From: a virus
Virus record (IMG/VR): IMGVR_UViG_3300040751_002066
Span: 4,930 to 68,929 of that record
Direction: 5' to 3' (one strand)
DNA: 64,000 nt
Shown: positions 8,454 through 44,471 of the stretch, in pieces
How positions within the stretch are numbered: the stretch's first letter is position 1
How the letters are laid out: every line of letters starts with the position of its first letter
Made by a program: the position numbers and the translations under genes
The notes under the pieces: model-generated
Databases searched by the model: none
What the model was told of the DNA's origin: nothing
Seen by the model: only the letters and a program-made list of their open reading frames with translations

Positions 8454-8942
8454 CTAGTGGGTGAGGCTCTCGGACTCTGCCTTGGTCCGAAGCAGGGACG
8501 TGTCGGCCGCGGCATACCAAAGGGCACAGGCATCCGCGAGGTCGTTACTGGGGATAGTGCTAAAGTCCCCTCGCCTCACTGCCTCGTTCTGCATGTCTTC
8601 CTTAGACGCCTTACCTCCCCCGGTGAAGAACTTCTTGAGGGTGGTTGGGGGGACCTCGTGGATGATCCGCACCCCGGCAGTGGCGCAGGCTAGGCGTACC
8701 ACTCCTCCTATCTCTCCGAGACGGTGTTGCCGAGAACGGGCGGCGAAGGCATACCCCTCAATGACTGCCACCTCGGGCTTGTGTTTGAGGAGGTGCGCAA
8801 GGATCTTGTCGTGCATGGTGCGGAGACGGGTGACCCCTCGCTCTGACCCGCCTTTGATTTCTTCGTACTGGCCCGGGCCGAAGTACATGGCGGTGTTGGT
8901 TAGGGACACATCAATGCCCACGGCGTTACTCGGAGTCTTCAT
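8454..8942 (-). CDS. ruvC: RuvC-like Holliday junction resolvase
   Basis: VGIDVSLTNT, VIEGY, LGEIGGVVR, VPPTTLKKFFTGGGKASKEDM, NDLADA. Confidence 0.88.
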   Translation of the reverse strand: MKTPSNAVGIDVSLTNTAMYFGPGQYEEIKGGSERGVTRLRTMHDKILAHLLKHKPEVAVIEGYAFAARSRQHRLGEIGGVVRLACATAGVRIIHEVPPTTLKKFFTGGGKASKEDMQNEAVRRGDFSTIPSNDLADACALWYAAADTSLLRTKAESESLTH

Positions 8943-9516
8943 CTTGTTTCGGAGGTAGGGTTTCTGCGTCCACCACATCTGCGTCAATTACGGTGGGTTT
9001 CTCCTTGACCACATCGAACTGGATCTGGAGCTTGGAAGTTCCACCGCCGCCCTTTCCTTTGTTGGGGTTGAGGATGCTCTCCATGATACGGTGCGCCTTC
9101 TCGGCGTCGGACCACGTGCGGATCTGGGGAGGCGCCTGCATCACCTTGTGGAAAATTTGATAAAGCTGCTGCGCCATCAAGACCCGGTACTTCTCTTCTA
9201 CCCCATCCTGCATTTCGAGGAACATCCCCAAGGCCGCTTCGGTGTTCTGGTTTCGTAGCTCCTTGGTGAACGCGTCCATGACGTGGTCCGGCTGGGGCAT
9301 CACCATGGGGTTGGCTTCTGGTTCCAAGGCCTGCCCCCTCTTGGCCCCGGATTCCTTGGCCCACCGGGAAACAGTCGACGGGTGGACCGCGATGGAGTCG
9401 GCGATTGCGGCAAGACTCTCCCCCATCATGTATCGATGGAGTGCCTTTTCTTTGAGCTGGGGGGCGACGCTCTTAAACTTATTCCCCTCGACGTTGGAGT
9501 TCTTGGGCTTGGACAT
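8926..9516 (-). CDS. HTH DNA-binding protein, probable terminase small subunit
   Basis: N-terminal HTH GESLAAIADSIAVHPSTVSRW; C-terminal TVIDADVV tail; close to TerL but divergent from it. Confidence 0.55.
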   Translation of the reverse strand: MSKPKNSNVEGNKFKSVAPQLKEKALHRYMMGESLAAIADSIAVHPSTVSRWAKESGAKRGQALEPEANPMVMPQPDHVMDAFTKELRNQNTEAALGMFLEMQDGVEEKYRVLMAQQLYQIFHKVMQAPPQIRTWSDAEKAHRIMESILNPNKGKGGGGTSKLQIQFDVVKEKPTVIDADVVDAETLPPKQDEDSE

Positions 9517-9701
9517 TAGAGGGGTGGGTTTTGTTCTCGGAGGGCGCGGCGTACCCGGAACCATTGCGAAGACTCCTCTGGGATACGCATGTAAGCCAAA
9601 GCAGACTCGGGACTCAACTCCCCCGCGAGGACCTCGTCCCAGATGGACGCGTGTTCAAGGTACAACTCTTCGAGGTCTCTGTTTGGGTACGGATTACTCA
9701 T
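9516..9701 (-). CDS. Small hypothetical protein
   Basis: 61-aa ORF (MSNPYP...) with a TAATG overlap with the next gene. Confidence 0.6.
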   Translation of the reverse strand: MSNPYPNRDLEELYLEHASIWDEVLAGELSPESALAYMRIPEESSQWFRVRRALREQNPPL

Positions 9702-26913: not shown

Positions 26914-26920
26914 TCAGGGC

Positions 26921-26968
26921 ACAAAAAAAGGCCCGACCTGCAATGAAGCAGGCCGGGCCTTGTGGTTT
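26921..26968. terminator. Intrinsic terminator between convergent modules
   Basis: AAGGCCCGACCTGC-6-GCAGGCCGGGCCTT stem with a 7-U tract on the minus strand. Confidence 0.8.
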
Positions 26969-29167: not shown

Positions 29168-29188
29168 GGTATTTAGTCTAGGTCTATT

Positions 29189-29374: not shown

Positions 29375-29378
29375 ATTT

Positions 29379-31399: not shown

Positions 31400-31416
31400 G
31401 TTATTTTGAATAGGGG

Positions 31417-31692
31417 TTAGGCTGGGTTGCTGATTTCCACGGTGACTACCTCTCCCGGCGGGAGGGGCACCACGCGAAATGTAGTGTCGTCGGCGCGAGA
31501 CCATCCCCCTCCGGGGTAGGTGCGGGTAAGGTTCATAACCTCGTGATGAAACTTGGACTGGGTCCGCATCACTAGGTCACCATGGTATGAACCCCCCGGG
31601 GCGTGGATCCGGGCAATCTGGAGCGGTGCCAGACTAGACATAGGGATGACTTTTGGCTTGGCGTTTTCTTTGGTTGTAATAACTTTAATCAT
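31417..31692 (-). CDS. Hypothetical protein
   Basis: 91-aa ORF downstream of a dyad hairpin and an A/C-rich leader. Confidence 0.7.
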   Translation of the reverse strand: MIKVITTKENAKPKVIPMSSLAPLQIARIHAPGGSYHGDLVMRTQSKFHHEVMNLTRTYPGGGWSRADDTTFRVVPLPPGEVVTVEISNPA

Positions 31693-31776
31693 AATGGTTG
31701 TACTGTTTGGTTGTTGGTGGGGCGCCCCGCATACTAGTGTCGACCAGTATGCGGGGCGGGTTGGATTAGGTGGGGG

Positions 31777-32694
31777 CTACGCAGAGATGCCGAGGTCTCC
31801 GAGGATACTTTGGGAAACGGTTCCCACCGCTGCCTTGGCAGTGGCCTCAAGATCACGACGGTGGTCAGTGTCTCCGCGCACCACGTCAAGGTCCGCGTTG
31901 GCGATAGGCTCGAGGGCAGCAATAGCTTCGTCGAATCGCTCCGACTCGATCCAGTTATACTCCTTGGCCACCTCGAGTCGGGACCGGAGCTTCTCGAACC
32001 GGCTACGACGCACCCGGCAGTCGGAGCCGAGCACTCCGAGGATCCCTTGGTCCGTGTCACCCGCACCGGTGACGATGGCCAACAGCTCACGAAGCAGGTT
32101 CTCTTGTGCGTCTTGAAGGATGTGATTACGGGACTCTTCGACTTGGGCCCGGACCTTGGCCGCGACTTCCTCACTCACCCCTGCGAGTAGGATGTCCCCG
32201 GAGGTGGGGTCTGGGGTGTAGTCCAGCTTGTGGGTGAACTTGGCCGCCGCCACTTCCGCGGAAGGGAACTCGATGTCTTCACAGGCACTCGCCAGTTTCT
32301 TCTGGGACGCTGCGACAAGCGCCGGGTATTGCCGGCGAAGCTCGCCACGCAAGCGTTCGAGCTGGTCGTCGGCGTCGTCAAAGATCTCGTTCACTTCAGT
32401 CAAGCGGTCGGCTCGGACGAGGATGCCCCCGGTACTGAGCTTGAGTCCCAGCTTGTTGAGGTTGGCGAGAGTCTGTGCAAACAGCGAGAGCATCTGCCCG
32501 ATGGGAGTGCCCTTGGATTCGAACAGGCGGGCCACGGTGCGGAGCGCCTTCGGGTCGGCTCCGGTACGTTGGCAGTTCTCATTGGTGATACGCTTGTGGG
32601 TCACGGTGAGTCCGGTTCGAGTGGTCGAGTAGTGGACCAGAAGGTTACCGGTGACAGAGACAGGAGTAGAGGTAGTAGTAGTAGGAGTATTCAT
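31777..32694 (-). CDS. Helical protein (DUF3150-like) associated with the AAA+/VWA module
   Basis: 305 aa from ATG 32694; Y..LV......L......FPS.E....KF pattern; located between the VWA and AAA+ genes. Confidence 0.6.
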   Translation of the reverse strand: MNTPTTTTSTPVSVTGNLLVHYSTTRTGLTVTHKRITNENCQRTGADPKALRTVARLFESKGTPIGQMLSLFAQTLANLNKLGLKLSTGGILVRADRLTEVNEIFDDADDQLERLRGELRRQYPALVAASQKKLASACEDIEFPSAEVAAAKFTHKLDYTPDPTSGDILLAGVSEEVAAKVRAQVEESRNHILQDAQENLLRELLAIVTGAGDTDQGILGVLGSDCRVRRSRFEKLRSRLEVAKEYNWIESERFDEAIAALEPIANADLDVVRGDTDHRRDLEATAKAAVGTVSQSILGDLGISA

Positions 32695-32795
32695 AGTAAT
32701 AATATTTTTGTTGGTTGTTGGTTGTTGGTTGTTGGTTGTTGGTTGTTGGGTTGGGCCCCGCATACTAGTGGCGACCAGTATGCGGGGCAGTTGGA

Positions 32796-33488
32796 CTAGT
32801 GGTCAGTGTCTTCAGGGTAGTCGAACAGGTAGTTGCTTGGGTACTCCGTTTCGGGGCAGCACTCGGTTCCGTAGTTGGGGAACTTGACCCCCACCTCGGA
32901 ACCCCACTCTTCCCACACGTCTCCTACCCACACCCACTCTCCGGTCGGGGATTTCTCATGACCGTCGAATACCGCCGTGAAGTGGGCCTCGCCCCTGAAG
33001 GACAGACACCCGGGGTACCGAGGCGGGGGGTCTCCCCGGTACACTGTGTCGAGGGCCTCCATTAGTTGAGGGAGCGTAACCCCAAGGACCCTTGCCTTCC
33101 CCGCAAGGAACTCATTGACTGGAGGGTCGGGCCGGGTGGGCTGCGAAGCGGAGGCGTCCACCCCCTCAAGGTCCCACTCATGCCTGACTTCCTTCACCTT
33201 GTTGGGACTTACCAGTACCCACACGAGGGAACCAGTAGGGTAGGGTCCCCGGAAGGGGTCGCACACCCCAATGGGGGTGGCCTTGTGCCCCGCGTTGCGC
33301 TCTCGGTATGGTTGTTTAGACACCCGGTTGAAGTTTCCTTGGGGGTTGATGTACACCTCGTCCCCGGCACTCAAGGGGGCCGCCGCGTAACCGGAGAGGA
33401 TGGCTACGTGGATGGCGTCCTTAACACCCGGGGCTACGGGCGTGGTTCCGAGGGTGTTCTTCTTGTTAATCTGTGATGTGGTACTCAT
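32796..33488 (-). CDS. Hypothetical protein
   Basis: 230-aa ORF (KDAIHVAI...GVCDPF...RHEW). Confidence 0.75.
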   Translation of the reverse strand: MSTTSQINKKNTLGTTPVAPGVKDAIHVAILSGYAAAPLSAGDEVYINPQGNFNRVSKQPYRERNAGHKATPIGVCDPFRGPYPTGSLVWVLVSPNKVKEVRHEWDLEGVDASASQPTRPDPPVNEFLAGKARVLGVTLPQLMEALDTVYRGDPPPRYPGCLSFRGEAHFTAVFDGHEKSPTGEWVWVGDVWEEWGSEVGVKFPNYGTECCPETEYPSNYLFDYPEDTDH

Positions 33489-33491
33489 AAT

Positions 33492-33689
33492 TTATACAGT
33501 TGGTTTGGTTGGTCCGTCCATTGAGGCTGGACGGTTCGCCTTTCGGGTGGGGATTAGTAACTCGTCGCGTAACTCTTGGACGTTCTGTTCCAAAAGTACC
33601 AGTCGAGTGATCGCTTTGTTGAGCATCTGCTGAGTCTCGATGAGTCTCCTCTTCAGTGTTTCTTTTGAGACCATGGCTTGGGCTAACAT
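33492..33689 (-). CDS. Small coiled-coil protein
   Basis: 65 aa with a heptad pattern. Confidence 0.55.
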   Translation of the reverse strand: MLAQAMVSKETLKRRLIETQQMLNKAITRLVLLEQNVQELRDELLIPTRKANRPASMDGPTKPTV

Positions 33690-34222
33690 GGTATGGGTTC
33701 GAGTTCGAGGATGTATTCCGCATCCTTGTCCCCCGGGGTGATGCGGGAGACGGCAGCAACGGTGGCGAGTTGGGGGTCTGTCACTATCTGAATGCCGTAG
33801 CCAATGTATGGGCCCCCATCCGGGTCAATGAAGGACAGGTCTCCGTCCTCCTCCTCCCCCCACCGGCAACTTAGGGCCCCGACAAGAGACAGCTTGGCGT
33901 AGTGGGACCCGTCCTTCCGACGGTACACCTCGATGGGCCACCGCTTGTTGTACCGGGAGCGCAAGGCCCCCCTCCGTGTGCAGGTCGTCGGCCCGTTGTC
34001 TGGCTCAAGGTGCTCCTCGAGCCAGTCAAGTAGCTCGTCGCTGTCTGCGGTCTCGGTGTCAACCTTGGCGTCCCATCCGTGTGCCGTGTCGGTGTATCGG
34101 ATGAGGGTCATGTCGTTGTTTTGCGTGCCCCTCTCGACGGCGAGGAGCAGCCCCTCCCGTTGGAAGGTTACGCTGTCGGCGGGAGTTATTTCGTGGATTT
34201 CTCGTAGTTCTTTTAGGTTCAT
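33683..34222 (-). CDS. Hypothetical protein
   Basis: 179-aa ORF after a (CCAACAA)n leader. Confidence 0.7.
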   Translation of the reverse strand: MNLKELREIHEITPADSVTFQREGLLLAVERGTQNNDMTLIRYTDTAHGWDAKVDTETADSDELLDWLEEHLEPDNGPTTCTRRGALRSRYNKRWPIEVYRRKDGSHYAKLSLVGALSCRWGEEEDGDLSFIDPDGGPYIGYGIQIVTDPQLATVAAVSRITPGDKDAEYILELEPIPC

Positions 34223-34225
34223 TTC

Positions 34226-34660
34226 TTAGTTGGTTGTTGGTTGTTGGTTGTTACTAGTCTTGACCAGTATGTAGGGGACGTCGTATCGGACCCACATGAA
34301 TGCCCACTTGGCGTCGTGTATCGGTGAGGGGTCTGACTCCCCCACGACGGGTGCGGTGCGGAAGTACCCCGATACGTGTGGGTTGTACCATACCTGATGG
34401 GACCACCCGTGCCGGTATAGTTCGTGGTGTTCCGGAGGGAAGGCGAGCGGGAAGGAGGCCACGTCCCCCATGTCCGGGGCGGTCACGAAGGCGTGGACAT
34501 TCTTGCGTCCCTCCCTGATAACCCGCTGCCTTCCCCCCTCCTGAACCACGAACCGTGGACCATGGATCAGGATACAGGGAGTGTGGAACAGGACCCGGCC
34601 GCCTTGGCGCACGGAGAATAGTTTCTTGTGCAGGTTGAAGTAAACTTCTACTCGGCTCAT
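34226..34660 (-). CDS. Conserved phage hypothetical protein
   Basis: VYFNLHKKLFSV...GRQRVIREGRKNVHAFV, a motif recognisable from other phage early genes; the C-terminus runs through the dyad and CAA repeat. Confidence 0.75.
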   Translation of the reverse strand: MSRVEVYFNLHKKLFSVRQGGRVLFHTPCILIHGPRFVVQEGGRQRVIREGRKNVHAFVTAPDMGDVASFPLAFPPEHHELYRHGWSHQVWYNPHVSGYFRTAPVVGESDPSPIHDAKWAFMWVRYDVPYILVKTSNNQQPTTN

Positions 34661-34854
34661 GGCTCCCCTAACCTTTCCACTAGGATCTTCAGTGCCTCGT
34701 CCCGGTTGGGCGCCTCGAAAGGCGGGACCACTCGCAGCACAAAGGGGTTGTCTTGCACGTCGTAGGTGTAGTCCTTCGGATCATTAAAGTACCGCTTGAG
34801 GATGGCCTTGCCACTGCTGTGCCAGTAGCCCCACCATTTAATTGGTTCACTCAT
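34657..34854 (-). CDS. Hypothetical protein
   Basis: 65-aa ORF with overlapping start/stop codons. Confidence 0.65.
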   Translation of the reverse strand: MSEPIKWWGYWHSSGKAILKRYFNDPKDYTYDVQDNPFVLRVVPPFEAPNRDEALKILVERLGEP

Positions 34855-35110
34855 GGCTACTCACCCTTTCCCGCACTTCCTTTAGGATGGACCGGGCCTG
34901 CGAGGGGCCCACTGACTGTAACGCCCGGGGGCTTTCGTAGCTCACCCCAAGGAACCGTCCCTCGCTCCGCTCGAACGCGTCCCCAACCTTGGGAGTGTTG
35001 AGGTGGTTAGTGAGTATCTCATGCCCCTCCCCTTGGGGGGAGAGGAGAAGGACCCCCCGAAGCCCGAAGCTGTTCGTGTTCTCAGATATACTTATAACGT
35101 GGAATTTCAT
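34847..35110 (-). CDS. Hypothetical protein
   Basis: Start ATG 35110 after a CAA-rich leader. Confidence 0.65.
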   Translation of the reverse strand: MKFHVISISENTNSFGLRGVLLLSPQGEGHEILTNHLNTPKVGDAFERSEGRFLGVSYESPRALQSVGPSQARSILKEVRERVSSHE

Positions 35111-35163
35111 AATAGTTGTTTGGTTGTTAGTTGTTGGTTGTCGGTTGTTGGTTGGGTTGGTTG

Positions 35164-36291
35164 TTACGCACCTACTAGTTCTGCCCACATCTCAGGTCGG
35201 CGTTCAGGCACGTTGATGCCCCGTCTCTGGGCAGTGGACAACCCGTAAGCTGCGACCTCGGGGTTGAGTCTCGCCATGCCATCCATCGCCCAGTCCAGCT
35301 TACCGGAGTGAAGTGCGGCACCGACGTCGCTTATGCCGCGGGTGGCATATAGCAAGGCGCCACTCGCCAGCATGAACTGCTGGTCGCTACGCTTGGGGAC
35401 CGTGAACCCTTCCGGGTCTTTCTTCATGGCCTCGAAAGCGGGCCGGTCCTCGAGGACTGCCAAGAAGGCGAACAAGGCGTTGCTCGCCGCGTCCCCGACC
35501 CACCCTTGGACGTTCACCCGCGCCGCCTCTCTGGTGCAGCGTCCCTCTCGTTGGTGGATGAGAGTCTTCATGACCTCCTCCCATGCACGTGGGGAGGGCT
35601 GGGCGTTGGGGACGAGAGGGTCAAAATCGGACGGGTCTCCGAGGAAGTGATCCTTGTGGGCCTCCGAAGCGGATACGCTGTTGCCATACGCAATGAACGC
35701 AGGGACGAAGGTCTCCGCATACTCGGGGACTGAGTCGGCCCACCGCCACCAGTTGGCCGCGTCGGGAATCAAGGTAACAAGGCTCGCCCGTCGGCACTCC
35801 GGGATGGAGTACCGACCAACCGCCGCCCCGTCGCTGCGTCTGTTGGTTGTGAGTCCACAAACCACGTTGGGTCCGATGATGTGAGACCCGAGGTATCGGT
35901 GCTTACCGGCGGGCGGGGACAGTACCCCGTGGAACGCGGCCCGGACTTGTGGGTCCCAGTTTCCCCACTCGTCGAGCACCCAATACACGTGGCTGTCTCC
36001 GACCCTGTCCATGGTGGGGATTCCCTCGGGCTGGGAGAACACCATGTTGAGTATCTTGTCTTCCCACTTGGGGAGTCCGAGTCCAGTTACTTCGACCGGA
36101 CCTTTGCCTGCAAAGTTGGACAGGGTAACCGTGTCAAACAAGGGACGTGCGGCATTGGCCATGATGGTTGTCTTACCTACCCCGCTGGGTCCGAAGACCA
36201 TGAGGGTAGATTGGGTGGCCCGTTGCAGGGCTACTTGTTCCTCCAACTGGGGAGGGCTGATCGGATTTTCGTTTTTCATTTCTTTTTTCAT
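35164..36291 (-). CDS. MoxR-like AAA+ ATPase
   Basis: Walker A GPSGVGKT, Walker B WVLDE, TTNR..D.A, PSPRAWE. Confidence 0.88.
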   Translation of the reverse strand: MKKEMKNENPISPPQLEEQVALQRATQSTLMVFGPSGVGKTTIMANAARPLFDTVTLSNFAGKGPVEVTGLGLPKWEDKILNMVFSQPEGIPTMDRVGDSHVYWVLDEWGNWDPQVRAAFHGVLSPPAGKHRYLGSHIIGPNVVCGLTTNRRSDGAAVGRYSIPECRRASLVTLIPDAANWWRWADSVPEYAETFVPAFIAYGNSVSASEAHKDHFLGDPSDFDPLVPNAQPSPRAWEEVMKTLIHQREGRCTREAARVNVQGWVGDAASNALFAFLAVLEDRPAFEAMKKDPEGFTVPKRSDQQFMLASGALLYATRGISDVGAALHSGKLDWAMDGMARLNPEVAAYGLSTAQRRGINVPERRPEMWAELVGA

Positions 36292-36307
36292 TTCTTTGTT
36301 GGGTTAC

Positions 36308-36823
36308 TTAGTCACGGATACGGAGGGACTTCACGTCTACTCCCGCAAGGTCGGCCACCTCTTGCAAGGTGAGGGTGGTTTCCTTGGCGGGTTCGGGGAT
36401 GTGAGTACCGTGGTGATACCACTTCTTGGAGCCGTCGGACCACTCAATGGCGGGACCGTCTTCACGGTGGAACCGGCCGTTGAGGTACCACGACTTGGAG
36501 CCGTCGGACCACTCAATGGCGGGACCGTCTTCACGGTGGCGCTGGCCGTGGTGATACCACTCCTTGATGCCGTTGGGTTCCTCAATGGCGGGACCGTCCT
36601 CACGGTGGAGCTTGCCGTGGTGATACCATGACTGGGCGCCGTCGGCATACTCAACGGCGGGACCGTTCTCACGGTGGAGCTGGCCGTTGATGTACCACTC
36701 CTTGGTGCCGTTGGAATACTCAATGGCGGGACCGTCTTCACGGTGGTAGGTGGTAAGCTTACGGTTGGAATAGTAACGGCGGGTGCCGTTGGGGTCTACG
36801 TAGATGTATTGTTCTTTGATCAT
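36308..36823 (-). CDS. HREDGPA-repeat (MORN-variant-like) protein, copy A
   Basis: Five 23-aa HRE(D/N)GPA(I/V)E....K.WY..G repeats and a C-terminal LTLQEVA tail. Confidence 0.85.
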   Translation of the reverse strand: MIKEQYIYVDPNGTRRYYSNRKLTTYHREDGPAIEYSNGTKEWYINGQLHRENGPAVEYADGAQSWYHHGKLHREDGPAIEEPNGIKEWYHHGQRHREDGPAIEWSDGSKSWYLNGRFHREDGPAIEWSDGSKKWYHHGTHIPEPAKETTLTLQEVADLAGVDVKSLRIRD

Positions 36824-36851
36824 ATTCTTTGTTGGTTGTTGGTTGGATGGG

Positions 36852-37367
36852 TTAGTCACGGATACGGAGGGACTTCACGTCTACTCCCGCAAGGTCGGCC
36901 ACCTCTTGCAAGGTGAGGGTGGTCTCCTTGGTGGGTTCGGGGATGTGAGTACCTTGGTGATACCACTCCTTGATGCCGTCGGGTTCCTCAATGGCGGGAC
37001 CGTCCTCACGGTGGCGCTGGCCGTTGAGCCACCACTCCTTGATGCCGTTGGCATACTCAATGGCGGGACCGTTCTCACGGTGGCGCTGGCCGTGGTGATA
37101 CCACTTCTTGGTGCCGTTGGCATACTCACTGGCGGGACCGTCCTCACGGTGGCGCTGGCCGTGGTGATACCACTTCTTGGTGCCGTTGGGATACTCAACG
37201 GCGGGACCGTCCTCACGGTGGAGCTTGCCGTGGTGATACCACTTCTTGGTGCCGTTGGGATACTCAACGGCGGGACCGTCCTCACGGTGGAAGGTGGTAA
37301 GCTCACGGTTGGAATAGTAATGGCGGGTGCCGTTGGAGTAGACGTGGATGTATTGTTCTTTGATCAT
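36852..37367 (-). CDS. HREDGPA-repeat protein, copy B (tandem duplicate)
   Basis: Same length and termini as copy A; the duplication unit is 544 bp (36308-36851 and 36852-37395). Confidence 0.85.
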   Translation of the reverse strand: MIKEQYIHVYSNGTRHYYSNRELTTFHREDGPAVEYPNGTKKWYHHGKLHREDGPAVEYPNGTKKWYHHGQRHREDGPASEYANGTKKWYHHGQRHRENGPAIEYANGIKEWWLNGQRHREDGPAIEEPDGIKEWYHQGTHIPEPTKETTLTLQEVADLAGVDVKSLRIRD

Positions 37368-37438
37368 ATTCTTTGTTGGTTGTTGGTTGGATGGGTGCCC
37401 CACATACTGGTTGCTACTAGTATGCAGGACAAGTCGGT

Positions 37439-37870
37439 CTACTCAAATGTAACAGTAAAGTTAGGCGCCTTGCTAGCGAGGTACCCCTCGATAGCCCCTT
37501 CCAAAGCGTCGTCGCTGATGTGTTCAGCGAGGTCGCCGAGGTCGATGTAGTCGGCAACCTTAATCGGGGATACGTGGGTGGCAACTCCAGACAGGCTCAG
37601 TTCCTCGGACAATTCCTCGAGGTCCACCCCCGCCGCCACCTTGTGGGGAGGGACGAAGGTCGCGACAACGGCGGGGTCCAGTTCGTCGGCCACCTGATCG
37701 GCAGTCGGAAGGTGGCGTGCAACCATGTCGGCAAGGTTCGCCGCTGCCTTGGTTGCCTCGTCTCTCCGGATGTCCTCTAAGTAGTCGAGGAGTAGCCAGT
37801 CAAGGACCATGTACCAGATGATGCGGGCTTGAAGGAGGGGGTAGCTGAGTAGTAGGGTAATGTATTTCAT
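37439..37870 (-). CDS. Hypothetical protein with a hydrophobic N-terminus and short internal repeats
   Basis: Start ATG 37870 after a CAA leader; repeated P..VA..(L/V/I)D units. Confidence 0.65.
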   Translation of the reverse strand: MKYITLLLSYPLLQARIIWYMVLDWLLLDYLEDIRRDEATKAAANLADMVARHLPTADQVADELDPAVVATFVPPHKVAAGVDLEELSEELSLSGVATHVSPIKVADYIDLGDLAEHISDDALEGAIEGYLASKAPNFTVTFE

Positions 37871-37959
37871 AATAGTTTTGTTGGTCGTTGGTTGTTGGTT
37901 GGTTGGGGAGCACCCTGAACCATGGGGTCGGACCATGGTTCAGGGTTCTGGGTTCAGGG

Positions 37960-38226
37960 TTAGATACCAAGATCGTCGTCTTCCTTCTTCTTCGCCTCCG
38001 CTGCCTCTTCCTCTTCCTCAATCAAAGCGTCGAAGCGTTCGTTGAGGGTGTCCCGAAGGGAACGAAGAGCTGCCAACGTCTCGCTGCGTGTAGCCTTAAG
38101 GGTAGGCTTACTCCCGGGGACTTGGGTGGTCACCTTCTCATTGAGGAGGGTGGAGGTTTGGTAAGTATCAACCTTGTGCGTGATGGCGAGGTCGAGGGTA
38201 ATGGTAGTTTCGGATGGTGTTTTCAT
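37960..38226 (-). CDS. Hypothetical acidic-tailed protein
   Basis: 88-aa ORF. Confidence 0.65.
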   Translation of the reverse strand: MKTPSETTITLDLAITHKVDTYQTSTLLNEKVTTQVPGSKPTLKATRSETLAALRSLRDTLNERFDALIEEEEEAAEAKKKEDDDLGI

Positions 38227-38258
38227 AGTAACAGTGGTAGTGGTAGTTGTAGTTGTAG

Positions 38259-38597
38259 TTAGAGAACCAGCTCATGGGTGTACGAACTGGTGCGATTGAA
38301 GGTACGTGCGAGTGTCCACGAGTAGGGCAGGCCCTTACAAGTTAGGATAACGAGCACACGGTCGTGGAAGTAGGATGTTGTAACCTCTTGCACTTCATAA
38401 AAAGTGGAATCGTATCGGAAGCGAACCCACTTGAGGTTGGTCTGAAGCCATTGCAACTGGGCAGTCGGACCGGCGAGGCGGGCCTCCTGTTTGCGGATGG
38501 CTGCGAGGTGGCGGGAGGCCCCGACCTCACGGACATCTTTCGATGCGCCGTGGGGCAGGACCTCGGGGTGCCTCCACTCAGGAAGAGGCAGTGACAT
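38259..38597 (-). CDS. Hypothetical protein
   Basis: 112-aa ORF. Confidence 0.55.
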   Translation of the reverse strand: MSLPLPEWRHPEVLPHGASKDVREVGASRHLAAIRKQEARLAGPTAQLQWLQTNLKWVRFRYDSTFYEVQEVTTSYFHDRVLVILTCKGLPYSWTLARTFNRTSSYTHELVL

Positions 38598-38844
38598 AAG
38601 AGGGGAGCACTACGGATGACCGCACACCCACCTCCGATGGGTGAACCTTCTGATGCTCGACCAAGGGAAGCACCCTCGACACTGGGACCCGATTGGGTGG
38701 GACGAATGGACGAACAATCAGGAGGTTACCCTCCCGACCCAACACCACGACACGGCGTCCCCTCAGCATAAGGGTCTCGCCGACGTAAATGGCCCAGCCT
38801 CTCGTACTAATGCCGACTAGTTTGGTATTGGTTCTACGCTTCAT
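38578..38844 (-). CDS. Hypothetical protein
   Basis: 88-aa ORF overlapping both neighbours. Confidence 0.55.
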   Translation of the reverse strand: MKRRTNTKLVGISTRGWAIYVGETLMLRGRRVVVLGREGNLLIVRPFVPPNRVPVSRVLPLVEHQKVHPSEVGVRSSVVLPSYVTASS

Positions 38845-39169
38845 AATATCCGGGGGTGGAGGGTTGGTCTGGCTGGGGGTAGTGTCCCCAGTAACTCTCG
38901 ACTACCTTGTCGAGGGCGTCGGAGTCAATGGTGTTCCACCTCTCGGAGGTGAGGGTATCGAACTCGGCACCATACTTCTCACAGGTCCTTCTCAGGAACT
39001 CCCGCTTGAACTTGTGGGCGAGGTCGATGTACTTGGTGCAACGGCTACGTGCCGAGTGGAGGATGACGTGGTCCTTACCTACACTGACCGAACACCGGCG
39101 CTTGAAGGGTTTAGGGGCCGGACCTTTCGGCTTCTCGTTGTCTGCTTTAATTTGAGGTAGTGCTTTCAT
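38834..39169 (-). CDS. Hypothetical protein
   Basis: 111-aa ORF after the leader AACCAAAACAAATAGCTATG. Confidence 0.7.
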   Translation of the reverse strand: MKALPQIKADNEKPKGPAPKPFKRRCSVSVGKDHVILHSARSRCTKYIDLAHKFKREFLRRTCEKYGAEFDTLTSERWNTIDSDALDKVVESYWGHYPQPDQPSTPGYYEA

Positions 39170-39238
39170 AGCTATTTGTTTTGGTTAAATGCACCGCTCT
39201 TGAAGAGGTGGCGGTGTGCCTCACCTGCTTGGTTGGGG

Positions 39239-39676
39239 TTACTTCAGGGATTTCTTTACCCCAACGGCGGCGCGATTGATCTCTGCAAGGGAGCTGAAGG
39301 ATATGGTCTGGCACCCCACGTGGATGCCTTCCTTATCTACCGTTGCGGTGTAATCCCCGACACCGGGGACCTCAATACTAAGCTCCTCTTCCACAGGGGC
39401 GAGGAGGCTTATGATTTGTGCGAGGTCTTCCTGCCAGTCCCACAGATTAGTGAGGCCCGCCCCGTGAGCATATCCCCCAACTACTTGGAGGGCGTCCGGT
39501 CTTACCTTCACCACGGTGTACCTCGGGTATGACTTGTCCACCCATTCTTCCGGGGTGGCATCATACACTGTGATCGAGCCGGGTGTGTAGATCGCATACC
39601 CCATAGTTGAGAGTAGGGTCAGGCATTGGATGGCGTCTTGATGGCTGGAGAATTGGATGTTAATTACTTTAGACAT
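39239..39676 (-). CDS. Hypothetical protein
   Basis: Start ATG 39676 after a dyad hairpin and CAA leader. Confidence 0.7.
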   Translation of the reverse strand: MSKVINIQFSSHQDAIQCLTLLSTMGYAIYTPGSITVYDATPEEWVDKSYPRYTVVKVRPDALQVVGGYAHGAGLTNLWDWQEDLAQIISLLAPVEEELSIEVPGVGDYTATVDKEGIHVGCQTISFSSLAEINRAAVGVKKSLK

Positions 39677-39751
39677 ACTATTTTGTTGGTTGTTGGTTGT
39701 TGGTTGGGTGCCCCACATACTGGTCTTCACTAGTATGTGGGGCAGGTTAGC

Positions 39752-40267
39752 CTAGAGGGCAGCTTGCAGCTCCTTTTGGATCGTTGACGCCAGCGCCTCC
39801 ACACATTCCAGACCGGCCGCGCCCACCATGATGAGGTCCTTGGCACGTTCCACCTCCTTGGAGATGCGGTCTTCAGTCGCTTGGAGGCGGGCCTCCAACT
39901 TAGCCTGCACTTTCCTGAGTGCCTTCTTCTCCTTGGAGAGACGAGTGATCTCCTCTTGGTGGTCGTTGGTGATGAGGTTAAGCACCGGAATATTAGCTAC
40001 GTAACCACCCAAGTTGGAACGATTCTCTTCGATGGTCGCAGCAATAACCTTCCGGACCGCCGCCGCCGGTGCGGGACGGGGGTTGGCATAGGGATCCTCA
40101 AGGAGCGAGTTGATTCGATCCCGGATCCAATCGATCCGCACCCGGCCATCAGTGCGGGCAGCGTCGCAGAGGTCATGGTGCGCGTCGCGGGCAAGAGAGT
40201 CGAGGCGTTTCACGATGTGCTTCTTCTCCGAGGCTGTCATTTTTGGGGTGTTATTTGTAGTCTTCAT
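39752..40267 (-). CDS. Hypothetical coiled-coil protein flanked by direct repeats
   Basis: 171 aa; near-identical ~70-bp hairpin-plus-leader blocks on both sides. Confidence 0.75.
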   Translation of the reverse strand: MKTTNNTPKMTASEKKHIVKRLDSLARDAHHDLCDAARTDGRVRIDWIRDRINSLLEDPYANPRPAPAAAVRKVIAATIEENRSNLGGYVANIPVLNLITNDHQEEITRLSKEKKALRKVQAKLEARLQATEDRISKEVERAKDLIMVGAAGLECVEALASTIQKELQAAL

Positions 40268-40353
40268 ACTATTTTGTTGGTTGTTGGTTGTTGGTTGTTG
40301 GTTGGGTGCCCCACATACTGGTCTTCACTAGTATGTGGGGCGATTGGTTGTGG

Positions 40354-40638
40354 TTAGCCACGCATCATGGCGGCGGCGAGACCGGAAACGTCACCCGTCT
40401 TGAGCATGCGTTCACTGTCCTCCATGGATGCGGCTTGCTTAAGGCCACGGGCCCGACGGTCTACCGATTTCTTCGCGACCGTCGGGTTCGCTACGACTTC
40501 AATCACCCCGTCTTCACGGGAGGTCAAGTCTTTGTTGATAATAAGAATCACTGGAGCCTTCGCGCCACGCGCAAGAGTCAGAGTGAATCCTTTGTATTGG
40601 GCGGTTGCCCCCATCTTGTTTTCTGTTTTGGTTTTCAT
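40354..40638 (-). CDS. Hypothetical basic protein
   Basis: 94-aa ORF. Confidence 0.6.
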   Translation of the reverse strand: MKTKTENKMGATAQYKGFTLTLARGAKAPVILIINKDLTSREDGVIEVVANPTVAKKSVDRRARGLKQAASMEDSERMLKTGDVSGLAAAMMRG

Positions 40639-40753
40639 GTTACAGGCCGGAAGTCTATCCGGTGGGGTATGTCCCGCGCAGCCGAAGCCACACGGGGCAC
40701 ACAGTCACCGTGCATACTTAGTCACGGATACAGAGGGACTTGTTGGGGATTAA

Positions 40754-41041
40754 CTAGCGAGCCGTTCCGAAGAACCGGATCAAGCGGCGAGCCGCCTCCC
40801 GATCTGATGTCTCGAACACCTCCCGCTCGGAGTGGCGACCCACCTTGGTGACAAGGCGGACCCCCTCTGGATCCACGTCAACAGTGGCGCACCGTTCATG
40901 GGTGCGCAACTCGACGTGTCCGTTGTCATCATTCTGGAAGGCCAGCACCCCGGATGGCACCACCATCATGAGGGTGGCGACACGAGTGGCTGCGGCACGT
41001 GACGGAACTCCCGTCACACTTTGGTTGTTTTTTGTATTCAT
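40754..41041 (-). CDS. Hypothetical protein
   Basis: 95-aa ORF after a hairpin and CAA leader. Confidence 0.65.
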   Translation of the reverse strand: MNTKNNQSVTGVPSRAAATRVATLMMVVPSGVLAFQNDDNGHVELRTHERCATVDVDPEGVRLVTKVGRHSEREVFETSDREAARRLIRFFGTAR

Positions 41042-41173
41042 TGTTTTGTTGGCTGGGTTGTTAGTTGTTACCCAGTGCTATGTCACTTGTGATACATACT
41101 AGTTGATACTAGTAGGTCACAAGTGACACGCCACTGAGAGTATAAGAACTCAATCTTATACCTGTGGTTGGGG

Positions 41174-41359
41174 TTAAATGATAGATGCGGTTAGCACCAC
41201 GAGTATGGCGAGGATGGCCCACGACGCTAGCTCGAATGCGGTTCTCATGGAGCGGGCCAAGTGTGGTTCACCCACTGGGCGAGTTTGCCTAGCCCAATCA
41301 CAAGGGCCACGAAGGCCACGAGATAAGCCAATCTCACTGGTCCCTCCCTTCTTGCTCAC
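41174..41359 (-). CDS. Small membrane protein
   Basis: C-terminal hydrophobic helix WAILAILVVLTASII. Confidence 0.45.
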   Translation of the reverse strand: MSKKGGTSEIGLSRGLRGPCDWARQTRPVGEPHLARSMRTAFELASWAILAILVVLTASII

Positions 41360-41528
41360 GTCGGATCCGAAAGGTGGTGACGTAGTTGCGGAGGATCTCC
41401 CGCACCAAGGGCATGCGCCTGTCCCGCCACCAATGCCGGAACGCCCACTTCAAGTCGGCGTCTATCGCGCCACGATGGTTAGTAAACCCCGGAGGCCGGG
41501 GCTTTATCTTTTGCTTATTTGTTTTCAT
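41334..41528 (-). CDS. Small basic hypothetical protein
   Basis: 64 aa; ATGA overlap with the upstream gene. Confidence 0.6.
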   Translation of the reverse strand: MKTNKQKIKPRPPGFTNHRGAIDADLKWAFRHWWRDRRMPLVREILRNYVTTFRIRREQEGRDQ

Positions 41529-41905
41529 ATCAATTTGGATACTTGTTCCACTTGTTCAAGAGGCCAAGACTTGTCTCCGTAGTAGAGGTTTTCGAGGTCG
41601 TGGGTTTCGAGATACGCCTCGAGCAAGGCGCGGAACATGGGGCCCACATTGTCCATGAACGGAGCGGGTCGGATCGCCAAGAAGTCATACGTGACTCCTC
41701 GGAACTTGAAGCAGTCGTTGGCGACGCGGAGGATGGGCTCGACTATAGTGTGGCCCTCATTGGTCACGCCGGTCACTACTTCAATGGAACTCCCCGAGTA
41801 AAGCGTGGACCAGAACGTCTCACACCAATGGGCGCGGAGCTTGGTTCCGTTGCCGGGTGAGGTGCCGCATGAGCGTAGCTCTATCTCTATGATCTTTGGA
41901 TACAT
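41525..41905 (-). CDS. Hypothetical protein
   Basis: 126 aa; dyad directly upstream of the ATG. Confidence 0.65.
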   Translation of the reverse strand: MYPKIIEIELRSCGTSPGNGTKLRAHWCETFWSTLYSGSSIEVVTGVTNEGHTIVEPILRVANDCFKFRGVTYDFLAIRPAPFMDNVGPMFRALLEAYLETHDLENLYYGDKSWPLEQVEQVSKLI

Positions 41906-41935
41906 GATGATACTGGTTGGGACTAGTAAGTGGGC

Positions 41936-42412
41936 CTAGTAAGTGTCACGGCGGGAGGCCCCGCGAACATTGACACGAGGGTAGGATTTAGGTTCCTTGG
42001 CGAGGCGCAAATCCGCGAGGACGTAGCACAAGGAGGTCAGGCCGTTGCGGGTGGTCCGGACGGACCGGTGCGGATACTTGTCGCTAAAGTGCGACGCTAG
42101 GCAACAGTGGAGCACCCATTCAAGGGACCGGAGCAGGTAGGTCCGGATCACCCCCTCGACATCCGTCCCTCTTTGATCCTCCTCGTCTACAAGGATGCGA
42201 CTCATGCGGGCCCCCAACTCGCGGGTGCACACCCCCTCGGGAAGGCCGTTGGGGAAATGAAGGGTCACCTCTAGGGGAACCTCGACATCCACGGGGTCTC
42301 TCTTCACAGGGGCGGGGGGAACCCCGCGATTGATGAAGCGCCCTTGGGCGTTGCTGGCTTTGCCCTTATTCATTCGGATAAGGGCCTTTCGTTTTTGTTT
42401 GTGCTCTTTCAT
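41936..42412 (-). CDS. Hypothetical basic protein
   Basis: Start reassigned to ATG 42412 (MKEHKQK); the longer called ORF runs through tandem repeats. Confidence 0.55.
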   Translation of the reverse strand: MKEHKQKRKALIRMNKGKASNAQGRFINRGVPPAPVKRDPVDVEVPLEVTLHFPNGLPEGVCTRELGARMSRILVDEEDQRGTDVEGVIRTYLLRSLEWVLHCCLASHFSDKYPHRSVRTTRNGLTSLCYVLADLRLAKEPKSYPRVNVRGASRRDTY

Positions 42413-42523
42413 AGCGGACACCCTCCCCCGTCCGGAGACGTGAGAGGGTGGGTCGCTATGCCCTGATCCATGATCCCCGATCCCCGATCCGATACTAGTA
42501 GCCCCTAGTATGGAGTCAGGGTG

Positions 42524-42611
42524 CAGTGCCATACAGTGCCATACAGTGCCATACAGTGCCATACAGTGCCATACAGTGCCATACAGGATACAGGATACAG
42601 GATACAGGATA
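42524..42611. repeat. Compound microsatellite (CAGTGCCATA)x6 plus (CAGGATA)x4
   Basis: Directly visible perfect tandem arrays. Confidence 0.97.
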
Positions 42612-42613
42612 CG

Positions 42614-42982
42614 CTATACACTGGCAATCTCAATGGCGGGACCGTCCTCACGGTGGGGCCGTCCGATTGAGAACCATTTCGAATGCCGCTCGCATACTGT
42701 TTCGAATGCGACGGTCCTCTCAAGAGTGTTCGCCCCTATGGTCCTCGCGTATCTTTTAACGCAAACGGTGGCATCTTGGAGGTCGCCGAAGTGATCCGTA
42801 TAATAGTCCATTTGCCTGATGAGGTCGTCGATACGACCGAGGGATGCGCAAAGCACAGGGGGGAGGAAAGCTGCGCAAACTCGCAGGAATTCCTCCCTTG
42901 TGGGAGTAATACTGCGCAACTGGATTGCGAGGGCCGCCTTAAACGTGGAGCTTTCGCCCTCAAGGTATTGATGTAGTGTCAT
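42614..42982 (-). CDS. Hypothetical protein ending in one HREDGPAIE unit
   Basis: 122 aa after a hairpin and AAACC-rich leader. Confidence 0.65.
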   Translation of the reverse strand: MTLHQYLEGESSTFKAALAIQLRSITPTREEFLRVCAAFLPPVLCASLGRIDDLIRQMDYYTDHFGDLQDATVCVKRYARTIGANTLERTVAFETVCERHSKWFSIGRPHREDGPAIEIASV

Positions 42983-43079
42983 AGTTTTTGTTTTGGTTTT
43001 GGTTCTTGTTTTGGTTTTGGGTAAAGTAAAGGGACCATACTAGAGCTTACTAGTATGGTCCCTTGTCGGTGCGGTCTTC

Positions 43080-43634
43080 TTAGGCGAAGACCTTGGCGAG
43101 GAGGAGTGCGGCCGCCTTGGCCTCGGCCCATTCTTTTGAATGGGTGTTCTGCCCGTCCAACTTGGCGGTCAGGGATTCAATCTGCTTGGCGATTGAATCG
43201 GGATTTAATGCCCTAGCCTTCCCGCCTTTCGCCTTGCCCTTTCCGGAAGTCTGAATGTTCCAAAGATCCTCCGACTTTTTGAGGCCCATCCATTTTCCAG
43301 AGAAACTAGACAAAGACTTGGCGTCTTTGGTTTCCTTGGGGAACAAGAGCTTGGCAGCCCCCCGCATCCCTTGGTGAAACAAGTCCCATTCGAAGTTGGC
43401 ACGGTAGGCCCAAAGGCCAATTTGCTTCCATTGAGGCTTGCCCCATACTTTACTAGTCCCGACTAGTAACTCCGCAAGGAAGGACGTGGCCGCATCCTGC
43501 TCGGCCATGCCCGTTTCAGCCAGTTGGTTCCAGCGGGCACAGAGGGCAACGACTAGTTTATCTTCGGACTTGTCGAATGCTTCGAGGGCGTTAAGGATGA
43601 TCGCGGATACTTCGATTTTGTTTTTAGTTGTCAT
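43080..43634 (-). CDS. Hypothetical protein, first gene of the early block
   Basis: 184-aa ORF; dyads upstream (43699) and inside (43451). Confidence 0.75.
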   Translation of the reverse strand: MTTKNKIEVSAIILNALEAFDKSEDKLVVALCARWNQLAETGMAEQDAATSFLAELLVGTSKVWGKPQWKQIGLWAYRANFEWDLFHQGMRGAAKLLFPKETKDAKSLSSFSGKWMGLKKSEDLWNIQTSGKGKAKGGKARALNPDSIAKQIESLTAKLDGQNTHSKEWAEAKAAALLLAKVFA

Positions 43635-44087
43635 TTTCTTTTCTTGGTTATGGGAAAGCGGTGTGCTCTCCCTTCACTAGGATAGGTGAACAGACCCCCA
43701 TACTAGTCGGGACCAGTTTGCGCGGCGGACCCTGATCCCCGACCCCTGATCCCTGAGCCTTGGTTCCGGATGCAGGGCCCTGAGCCTCCGACCCGGCTGC
43801 TGGGGGGTGGGTTCGTTTTTCTCGGTACCGGAATCATAGTATATTATGGTGCACACAATTTGTTGAAAATACTTTTGTTGCACCGGAGGGGGTTGTGGAA
43901 CGGACTGAGAATCAGTGACTTACAAAAGTGTGACATTTTGTCGCACCTGTTTCGCAATATATTGCACAAGTTGCACCGGGCCGGCGCAAGATTCAGAGCA
44001 CGGGGCTCGCAAGCCTTGTACCTACAACGATCCTCGGTGCAATATTTGTTGCACGCGGGTGCAAAATCAGGGATCAGGGCGCAGGGT

Positions 44088-44412
44088 AAAAATGGGCTTA
44101 CTGAGTATCAATGAGTTAGCGGTTCGTTTTGCCGCAAATAGGGGCGCTAGCCCGCATAGGTACAAGGAAACGCAACGTGAGGGATCCCCCACTCCACGGA
44201 CCCCCACTCCACAAACCCCTTAAGGAAGAGTTTTCTGTATTACTGAGAGAGTAGGATCTCTTCTGATAATACCTTTATGGAGGGTTTGTGGAGTGGGGGT
44301 CCGTGGAGTGGGGGTTCCCGCGGACCACGTTTCCTTGTACCTATGCGGGCTGGAGCCTCTATTTGCGGCAAAACGAACCGCTAACTCACTGATACTCAGT
44401 AAACCCCTTTTT
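44088..44412. repeat. Large imperfect inverted repeat (~132-bp arms, ~61-bp AT-rich spacer); candidate origin or packaging/terminus signal
   Basis: Arm 44088-44219 is the reverse complement of 44281-44412 with scattered mismatches; each arm has two CCCCCACTCCAC units; sits at the strand-divergence point. Confidence 0.92.
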
Positions 44413-44443
44413 GCGACCCATCAAAAGACCAGATTACCCGAAT

Positions 44444-44466: not shown

Positions 44467-44471
44467 TAGGT

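Follow-up and report, generated by a model that had tools for sequence, protein, structure and literature searches.

A repeated ACTAGT dyad among the early genes of an uncultured phage as a candidate operator

An inverted repeat that recurs between the early genes of an uncultured phage of about 69 kb is, judging from its sequence and surroundings, most likely the docking site of a candidate regulator protein. The repeat, TACTRGT-N4-ACYAGTA (the dyad), lies in a stretch of 64,000 nucleotides (the window) that comprises bases 4930-68929 of the 68,929-bp viral record IMGVR_UViG_3300040751_002066; coordinates refer to the window unless a different contig is named, and gene models throughout are our own open reading frame (ORF) calls. 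Repeats scattered through the early regions of phages are a common observation that seldom receives an explanation. In this phage, a comparison with one distant relative, contig G007, cleanly separates two layers of the element: the core of two ACTAGT hexamers outlives the replacement of all neighboring early genes except the first (ORF1), and the hairpin flanks do not. We tentatively favor, at somewhat less than an even chance, the reading of the dyad as an operator for a sequence-specific DNA-binding protein that would coordinate the early cistrons.

The dyad in the window genome

The pattern is present in nine exact copies, against none in 100 shuffled sequences (expected 0.00), and in 13 copies when up to two mismatches are allowed, against an expectation of 0.29 ± 0.52 and a shuffle maximum of 2. 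These counts bear out a preliminary description of the window, which had placed a 13-copy dyad at the same positions and confined it to 31.7-43.7 kb. Across the full 68,929 bp of the genome, each of the 12 sites with at most one mismatch does lie at window 31.7-43.7 kb rather than occurring equally often elsewhere, and a reversed-pattern control returned 0 sites genome-wide. The tetranucleotide CTAG is scarce in the genome (79 observed vs 256 expected), 32 of the 79 lie within the 12-kb dyad block, and the block holds 18 of the genome's 22 ACTAGT hexamers, with extra hexamers adjoining two of the dyads. The spacer is 4 nt long in all 13 copies and variable in sequence at every position, as previously described. 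Arm positions A2, C3, T4, and G6 and A15, G16, T17, and A18 are unchanged in 13 of 13 copies. Pair 5, read on the sense strand, is A-U in five copies, G-U in four, and A.C in four; this mixture favors neither strand, in agreement with the earlier reading of the single mismatch.

Around the core, a long stem of 13-16 pairs is formed in only eight of the 13 copies, by flanks of at least three unrelated sequences, and the four flanks singled out earlier (31723-31758, 39709-39744, 43029-43064, and 41081-41128) pair as claimed. When all 13 copies are read as a 16-bp helix, 76.9% of cells pair vs 67.8 ± 2.1% after shuffling (0 of 500 shuffles as high), and sliding the partners of the same helix lowers pairing to 29-42%. 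Double-sided changes across this helix number 25 vs 11.8 ± 3.0 in shuffles (0 of 500). The flank cells are paired in 77 of 117 cases vs about 38% at random positions, and the 16-pair stems have minimum free energies (MFE) of -25 to -35 kcal/mol. An intrinsic (Rho-independent) terminator requires a hairpin and a T-run, and no T-run follows any of the 13 copies on either strand; in a loose terminator scan, only the copy at 40316 passes, on the antisense strand. A search of window 27000-45000 against Rfam 15 gave 0 matches at the gathering score.

The hexamers outlive their neighbors in a distant relative

A scan of IMG/VR for the perfect dyad returned 123 stretches, the best 80 of which were examined. 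Among the matches listed was one contig of 61,446 bp (G007) with three separate perfect-dyad sites. G007 has a GC content of 47%, the gene order of the window phage, and a 3569-aa ORF after its terminase. The two phages have 15 proteins in common at 23-45% identity, including a portal-sized 752-aa protein at 40%. With up to two mismatches allowed, G007 holds seven dyads, all at 25.8-29.2 kb (within 3.4 kb) in its own leftward block of small genes, and the reversed-pattern control found 0. On the sense strand, the sites read nACTAGT-G-N-[CA]-C-ACTAGTA. Both ACTAGT hexamers are unchanged in seven of seven sites; of the outer bases, the left one is variable and the right one is always A. Most sites are followed directly by (CCAATAA)n, (AAACAA)n, or a shorter A/C-rich leader, with the ATG 4-45 nt on. 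The flanks pair in 18 of 63 cells, below the 37% found at random, and G007 keeps only a 7-bp AU-rich stem with an MFE of -5 to -10 kcal/mol. By BLAST, 0 early proteins are common to the two phages, and a profile search recovers only ORF1 (hmmsearch E 4e-53).

Because the hexamers are kept and the stems are lost in G007, the core is the conserved part of the element, and the hairpin is a lineage-specific addition. What this family keeps thus appears to be two hexamers one turn apart together with a CA-rich leader, the long stems apparently belonging to the window genome alone. The preliminary description had held that sequence and structure both look selected; the covariation is real in the window genome, and the part of the claim that concerns structure does not extend to the relative. 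A dyad retained while neighboring genes and sequence change, here in one relative, is what is expected of an operator-type site.

Other routes to relatives gave less. A megablast of the block against deposited phages found no relative, and IMG/VR scans seeded with the ATPase, the C-terminus of the giant protein described below, an ATPase alignment, and an ORF1-subfamily alignment yielded no relative with a usable early block. Three relatives of the giant protein (G001-G003) are fragments that lack an early block and hold no dyad. The repeated dyads in G001 proved to be leucine-rich-repeat coding repeats and were set aside as not being the phage element.

A dyad inside the first early gene

ORF1 (43080..43634, minus strand, 184 aa) is the first early gene and the sole early-block protein common to G007. 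Seven distant homologues are found in a library of 1.84 billion proteins, six of them aligned at 24-33% identity, and the G007 protein joins them. Conservation in the family peaks in the stretch ELLVxTSK. A perfect bare dyad at 43451..43468 codes for exactly that stretch, as LLVGTSK, with the arms giving LLV and TSK and the spacer giving x, and in the ORF1 of G007 the corresponding ALVATSK is written as a dyad with one mismatch. The codons used are rare in this phage (TTA 3.4% and CTA 9.2% of Leu, ACT 20% of Thr, and AGT 11% of Ser); for the given peptide, the joint probability that the codon usage of this phage produces the dyad is about 7e-5. The 43451 dyad is intact in a variant contig (one contig, of low depth) that shows 19 differences within 289 bases. 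Two of the eight family members (P0083 and P0086) cannot encode the full dyad. The predicted structure of ORF1 is all-helical with a pLDDT of 80, and Foldseek found no match to this model at E <= 0.001.

Two further dyads lie in coding sequence, at 38805 and 34252, positions named together with 43451 in the earlier description of bare cores inside ORFs. The copy at 43451 sits inside the first early gene, the copy at 38805..38822 is degenerate (two mismatches, no stem), and the bare copy at 34252..34269 falls in the last 14 codons of an L5-gp82-like ORF (34226-34660). A 55%-identical homologue of that ORF has a different right arm, and the peptide of the left arm is a motif of the family.

Placement, leaders, and translation signals

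The block has 26 gene junctions from 43.9 to 31.4 kb, 16 of them with gaps of at least 28 nt. Ten of these long gaps hold a dyad, one holds a lone half-site, three hold an unrelated hairpin (at 40.7, 39.2, and 37.9 kb), and two hold nothing of the kind. The dyads lie 10-30 nt past the upstream stop codon and 29-66 nt before the next ATG (5 nt for the copy at 41911). A G-poor, CA-rich leader comes directly after the dyad element, and the early spacers as a whole are G-poor on the sense strand, with an AC fraction of 0.72. At six places (32708-32749, 34229-34252, 35115-35165, 37878-37906, 39683-39706, and 40274-40304), the leader is a near-perfect heptamer array, (CCAACAA)n, of 3.4-6.9 copies. 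In a marine sequencing run, the summed contig depth was very high in the bins over these arrays, a depth that probably stems from other organisms with similar repeats.

Followed in the direction of the leftward genes, the series opens at 43701..43718 with a copy (one mismatch) that precedes the start codon (ATG) of the first early gene by 66 nt and is adjoined by GGGGATC-type repeats. After the copy within ORF1 comes 43038..43055 (one mismatch), 27 nt past a stop codon, with a 15-pair stem at about 43029-43064, a 6-nt loop, and a (CAAAAC)-type leader after it. The copy at 42493..42510 (one mismatch) shares a 201-nt gap with two abutting tandem arrays at 42524-42620, a perfect 10-nt unit (CAGTGCCATA) repeated 6.3 times and a 7-nt unit (ATACAGG) repeated 4.6 times. 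A bare dyad at 41911..41928 lies in a 30-nt gap, 5 nt before an ATG, with an extra CTAGTA half-site at 41936. The perfect dyad at 41097..41114 has a stem at about 41081-41128 built from flanks unrelated to the others, GTCACTTGTGA.../...TCACAAGTGAC. The copies at 40316..40333 (GC-rich stem of 15-16 pairs, then a (CCAACAA)4.4 leader) and 39718..39735 (GC-rich 16-bp stem) are near-identical in element and leader. At 37405..37422, the stem flank forms through three sense-strand G.U pairs, and a heptamer leader follows. The lone half-site, ACTAGTA at 35173..35179 (minus strand), stands directly before the longest CA-rich leader (35115-35165). The copy at 34252 is succeeded by a (CCAACAA)3.4 leader and the next ATG. 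The copy at 32763..32780 has a 15-bp GC-rich stem, a (CCAACAA)6 leader, and an extra ACTAGT 21 bp away at 32795, and the last copy of the block is 31732..31749, within a 16-bp GC-rich stem at 31723-31758. The leader at 36828 is a duplicate of the leader at 37372, both preceding tandem paralogues; these two genes (36308-37367, minus strand) each contain about five 69-nt (23-aa) repeats, and their leaders are duplicated with them.

A simple test for Shine-Dalgarno-like motifs found them before three of 25 early genes, two of five distal genes, four of 11 replication genes, and none of 23 rightward genes, and this near-absence points to a host with Shine-Dalgarno-independent initiation. Many starts are preceded by ...TAACC or by A-rich tracts. 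A scan of 18 kb for sigma-70-like promoters gave seven matches vs 6.3 expected, with none at the dyads.

The hexamer in other viruses and genomes

Many AT-rich marine viral contigs, among the matches listed, hold pairs of dyads 45-46 bp apart. Four of these contigs (G008-G011; GC 36-37%, about 43-61 kb, giant ORFs of 2327-3202 aa) each carry ACTAGT in two intergenic arrays of 4-12 hexamers within 50-300 bp, for example at 53417-53544 in G009 and 23025-23124 in G008. The spacing within these arrays varies, with abutting hexamers included, so they cannot all be hairpins, and most of the eight arrays inspected contain or adjoin a TTGACA and/or TATAAT box. The arrays look like operator clusters. 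In these four contigs, the terminase has 52-55% identity to its counterparts in Pelagibacter phages HTVC027P and HTVC023P and in phage 023Pt_psg01.

Five further contigs (G012-G016) have one site each. A pattern extended by CA...TG flanks found five stretches in IMG/VR; in two large AT-rich viruses (G004 and G005), the extended dyad sits inside longer paralogous repeats, and these were discarded. Among metagenome contigs, the extended pattern gave 49 single sites, including 10-bp satellites. The long 10-bp satellites (L022, L029, L036, L052, L056, and others), with units of the TACTRGTAYR type, match the dyad by periodicity and were rejected as unrelated. In two related contigs (L028 and L033), the dyad overlaps the ATG of a gene that reads like an AbrB/MazE-type antitoxin; there it is likely an autoregulatory operator in an unrelated setting. 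Across 185,579 species genomes, the extended dyad occurs at 27 single sites, about chance level by our estimate, and none of these genomes has it more than once. In the absence of a multicopy bacterial genome among them, a host regulon is not evident. A literature search for the hexamer-pair strings, with supplementary files outside its reach, found no paper.

The search for a protein that reads the site

Four proteins conserved in both dyad-bearing genomes are candidate binders: ORF1, a 212-aa protein, a 244-aa protein, and the giant protein. The 212-aa protein (8926..9564, minus strand) has a weak match to HTH_38 (E 5e-4, below the cutoff) and a syntenic homologue in G007 (phmmer E 1e-7), which make it a candidate only. 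The 244-aa protein (1550-2284) is likewise common to G007. The giant ORF (13978-26913, plus strand, 4311 aa) has no family match: searches found no RNA_pol family in Pfam, no PHROG, and no PDB sequence match at E <= 1; a pattern search found neither a T7-type motif B nor a conserved D.D.D motif; and the ESM Atlas offered no usable match for the middle part. Its sole conserved signature is an HExxH at residue 3135, common to homologues of 5261 and 4457 aa. The 4457-aa homologue carries DUF7178, which in the window phage is a separate gene (30833-31504). The giant protein looks like an ejected multidomain protein.

Six-frame searches for families that would fit particular mechanisms were negative. 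The T7-like polymerase family PF00940 was not found, and the control genomes were silent too. The TrpR family (PF01371) and the tyrosine recombinase/integrase family (PF00589) were absent, with control matches in 13 of 14 and 14 of 14 genomes, respectively, and the Y1 (IS200-like) transposase family (PF01797) was absent as well. For sigma factors, the scanned proteins gave one weak match to sigma-70 region 3 (E 0.036), no six-frame sigma search having been made. No lysogeny gene was seen.

A proposed operator and its alternatives

Read as double-stranded DNA, the dyad would be a cis-regulatory protein-binding site. The hexamer centers are 10 bp apart, or one helical turn, which places both hexamers on the same face of the helix. 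The binder would probably be a dimer or a pair of dimers seated on the two self-complementary ACTAGT hexamers, and it is most likely encoded by the phage and conserved in its family. With one site 5' of most early cistrons and one inside ORF1, a single factor can control the whole early block. Having accumulated, this factor would most likely shut the early cistrons off, either as a roadblock or by occluding promoters; activation is also conceivable. In eight copies, the flanks would have evolved further into palindromes of 13-16 bp, a second and lineage-specific layer, and transcripts of these copies would form stable intercistronic hairpins that could insulate or stabilize the mRNA. Recognition of the duplex explains why the spacer is fixed in length and free in sequence, why neither strand is favored, and why there are bare copies and a rare-codon copy in ORFs. 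It also explains the extra hexamers, the core that persists in G007 minus its stems, and the arrays in other phages. That a protein binds the dyad at all is what we infer from these observations, and the binder's candidate identity and direction of effect are put forward on the same terms. The earlier suggestion of DNA-level recognition has gained from three sides: the stemless hexamers of G007, the rare-codon copy inside ORF1, and the variable-spacing arrays elsewhere. Among the hypotheses listed in the preliminary description, which were operators, cruciform promoters, RNase III-type processing sites, sites for stepwise DNA entry, and cassette recombination sites, operators are the best supported.

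Several observations weigh against an operator. Duplex binding leaves the covarying flanks unexplained, so that they need a second function. No sigma-70-like promoter stands at the dyads, which means that occlusion would have to act at a promoter we cannot see, and a roadblock is something that we infer. Placement 10-30 nt past stop codons in G-poor spacers is also expected of an RNA element. None of the 25 early proteins (0 of 25) matches a DNA-binding family, and the ORF1 model has no fold match. The ORF1 peptide could be conserved for protein reasons alone. The comparison of dyads covers one true relative with DNA, G007. The arrays of G008-G011 may be an unrelated system, these contigs sharing one or two proteins with the window phage, and the dyad occurs in none (0 of 3) of the deposited relatives HTVC027P, HTVC023P, and 023Pt_psg01.

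The alternative that we rate highest, itself unlikely, moves recognition to the RNA: the transcribed dyad would be a hairpin between the cistrons of a long early mRNA, recognized by a ribonuclease or an RNA-binding protein specific for its structure or sequence. The mRNA would then be cut into units that begin with an unstructured, CA-rich 5' leader and are protected by a hairpin at the 3' end, or the hairpin would govern how the following cistron is translated. RNase III cleaves the early sites of T7 in a comparable way. The position of the dyads after stops and 29-66 nt before starts would suit such an element, as would the sense-strand composition of the spacers, the scarcity of Shine-Dalgarno-like motifs in the early genes, the covarying and stable stems, and the unrelated hairpins in equivalent positions at 37.9, 39.2, and 40.7 kb. 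So would the outline of the block, a 17-kb run headed by one promoter-like site and ended by a canonical terminator. G007 speaks against it, with its 7-bp AU-rich stems in place of the extended ones, and the loss of stems there weakens the earlier proposal of RNase III-type processing sites in particular. Moreover, an A.C mismatch is present on the sense strand in four of 13 copies, the loop, which is the usual protein contact, varies freely, bare copies lie within translated ORFs (43451 and 34252), the hexamer arrays of other phages cannot all fold, and neither an Rfam family nor a nuclease candidate was found.

A doubtful reading, which we place below RNA-level recognition, is that dyad and leader form a linker of short homology between ORFan cassettes. 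Recombination between copies would swap, delete, or duplicate early genes, and conservation would reflect this use or mere co-copying. The early genes of the window genome (G000) and of G007 are wholly different except for ORF1, with dyad and heptamer leader in both; the copies at 39718 and 40316 match almost perfectly across a stretch of more than 60 nt that takes in loop and leader; a leader has been duplicated before the tandem paralogues; and the early products are all ORFans in this reading. The promoter-early stem-loops (PeSLs) of T4-type phages offer a precedent as composite stem-loop elements beside ORFans in plastic regions (PMC2839356, PMC4122927). An 18-bp core is very short for homologous recombination, however, and PeSLs are reported to be conserved over about 100 bp (PMC2839356). 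The arms stay constant among copies that mostly differ in loop and flanks, which speaks for selection on the arms and not recent copying. In addition, integrase and Y1 transposase are absent in six frames, and the copy inside ORF1 lies away from any cassette edge. The earlier idea of cassette recombination sites thus fits the turnover of early genes around retained elements and lacks a recombinase; such a use can coexist with an operator role.

We consider it improbable that the dyads are hairpin or cruciform promoters as in N4, extruded from supercoiled DNA and read by a virion polymerase, with the 4311-aa protein as the candidate and transcription initiating within the G-run of the 3' flank, only a few bases farther downstream. 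The setting invites the comparison: a genome of about 69 kb with a giant ORF among its virion genes, many copies in the early block only, an AT-rich center with GC-rich flanks, and a leader that starts right after the element. N4 promoters also combine conserved and covarying stem positions (PMC4496689), and LUZ7 has nine early hairpin promoters as well as some internal ones (PMC9163698). Sequence searches nonetheless gave the giant protein no polymerase match or motif and only the HExxH is conserved, PF00940 was not found (in a search whose controls were silent too), and the variable 4-nt loop differs from the 3-nt loop with required bases of N4. The stems are lost in G007, and the template-strand pair 5 varies among copies, with A.C in some and G.T in others. 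For this earlier hypothesis, no polymerase turned up by family, sequence, or pattern. About as improbable, in our estimate, is a new early-expression system in which a factor that arrives with the virion or is expressed first, either the giant HExxH protein or ORF1, whose own gene contains a dyad, binds the paired hexamers or extruded hairpins. That factor would, with the same slight probability, start or license each CA-repeat-led cistron that lacks a Shine-Dalgarno site, by a promoter logic unlike that of sigma-70 or N4. Its setting, a long shot to the same degree, would be uncultured phages of 60-70 kb with a giant ejected protein and no recognizable RNA polymerase, sigma factor, or repressor.

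Comparison with known systems

Returning to the operator reading, stoperators are many copies of one repressor site in the short intergenic spaces of co-directional operons, and they were proposed to block elongation and not only to occlude promoters. They are asymmetric, oriented 13-mers spread genome-wide in temperate phages; the dyad is symmetric and confined to 12 kb. The E. coli trp operator has two ACTAGT-type hexamers, a sequence that our literature search did not confirm. Its hexamer centers are 8 bp apart, according to the 2-bp spacer given in the preliminary description, vs 10 bp here, which presents a different face. Neither a TrpR gene nor the TrpR spacing is found in the window phage, and a host TrpR could still be involved.

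Dispersed intergenic repeats of phages have elsewhere proved to be repressor sites, as in the case of SPBRE, which is bound by MrpR (PMC10516654). Like the dyad, SPBRE (the element of the MrpR/YopR master repressor of SPbeta) is a short conserved sequence scattered through some ten intergenic or promoter regions in a single phage. In silico prediction had revealed it long before a binder was found, and it controls many genes of unknown function jointly (PMC10516654). It differs in being a 15-bp motif of a temperate Bacillus phage whose binder has a tyrosine-recombinase fold (PMC10516654); the window phage has a strict dyad, eight copies with long stems, and no tyrosine-recombinase family in six frames. 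The same absence of PF00589 sets the dyad apart from integron attC-type sites, which go with a tyrosine-recombinase fold, and the absence of PF01797 sets it apart from REP/REPIN elements with their RAYT Y1 transposase.

PeSLs resemble the dyad as repeated composite stem-loops between ORFan early genes in a plastic region, ending at the translation start of the next gene, with surrounding genes that turn over between relatives (PMC2839356, PMC4122927). In the passages cited, they comprise a consensus sigma-70 promoter, a Shine-Dalgarno sequence, and terminator stem-loops, conserved over about 100 bp (PMC2839356, PMC4122927). The dyad shares the stem-loop between ORFans in a plastic region (long stems in eight of 13 copies, dyads in 10 of 16 long gaps). 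It has no promoter consensus, Shine-Dalgarno sequence, or T-run, in particular no sigma-70 promoter inside the element, its core is 18 bp, and its stems are missing in G007. At 23-45% identity, G007 is too distant for rearrangement joints to be traced.

The ESAS/SAS elements of Cluster K mycobacteriophages offer another parallel. Immediately before the start-associated sequence (SAS) lies ESAS, an imperfect inverted repeat whose spacer varies; it occurs only in the nonstructural half of the genome and is conserved across subclusters before unrelated genes (PMC3203893). Each ESAS arm measures 17 bp and the spacer 4-13 bp, and SAS is a G-rich 13-mer like a ribosome-binding site (PMC3203893); the dyad has 7-bp arms, a fixed spacer of 4 bp, and a CA-rich heptamer array as its start-associated part. 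The account of ESAS in PMC3203893 gives its binder and function as unknown, and the same source mentions the stoperators of Cluster A mycobacteriophages. N4-type promoters are alike in being inverted repeats upstream of early genes in a phage of about 70 kb with a giant virion protein (PMC4496689, PMC9163698). Their stem of 5-7 bp, 3-nt loop with required bases, and T7-like polymerase domain (PMC4496689, PMC9163698) have no counterpart here, where stems reach up to 16 bp (bare 7 bp in G007) and the 4-nt loop is variable.

Genome, gene layout, and sample

The record carries a 113-bp overlap at its ends. The DNA runs that hold the genome are labeled as estuary, marine, and mollusc metagenomes, the contigs from them are low-depth fragments, and 0 of the nine runs holding the genome are on record as having an RNA source. 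A leftward replication module encodes a DNA polymerase, an exonuclease, a helicase, and a DUF5906 primase-like protein, and a rightward run consists of the terminase, two unknowns, and then the 4311-aa ORF. The small-gene block runs leftward from about 43.9 kb down to 27.0 kb (about 17 kb) with all of its genes on the minus strand, and the structural and lysis block runs rightward. In family searches, the products of the leftward block are nearly all ORFans, with the exceptions of an ATPase, a DUF2201/VWA protein, the DUF7178 protein, the L5-gp82-like protein, and an RNA ligase. A single sigma-70-like match marks the head of the block, TCAACA-17-TATACT (43838..43866, minus strand), by consensus only, and at the end of the block stands a GC hairpin with a run of seven T (26920..26959, minus strand), a canonical intrinsic terminator type read directly from the sequence.

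Other features lie nearby. Several TTGCAC/GTGCAA motifs are found at 43900-44110 (minus-strand reading), upstream of the sigma-70-like match, and include one TTGCAC-N4-GTGCAA, a second dyad of different sequence; they look like a classical operator set. An inverted repeat at 44088-44412, with arms of 131 nt that are 89% complementary and 63 nt apart, lies where the leftward early block and the rightward block diverge and might be an origin or a bidirectional control region. In genome bases outside the window, a gene for a 124-aa RF-1-domain protein (peptidyl-tRNA hydrolase/ArfB-like; L010:3760-4134) lies between the primase-like and DNA polymerase genes, and a host search using this protein gave no match.

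Implications

The dyad belongs to a phage family of which no member has been cultured and whose early functions are almost entirely unannotated, and to an unusual style of expression that lacks Shine-Dalgarno sites and uses CA-rich heptamer-repeat leaders. The copy in ORF1, written in rare codons inside coding sequence, is a site at which a regulatory element and a protein motif would constrain each other. For the operator reading, the comparison leaves a testable target in the form of one duplex site of 16-18 bp and four candidate binders. If the binder is found, it would identify a new family of regulators, together with the regulon they govern, in phages abundant in estuaries and the sea.

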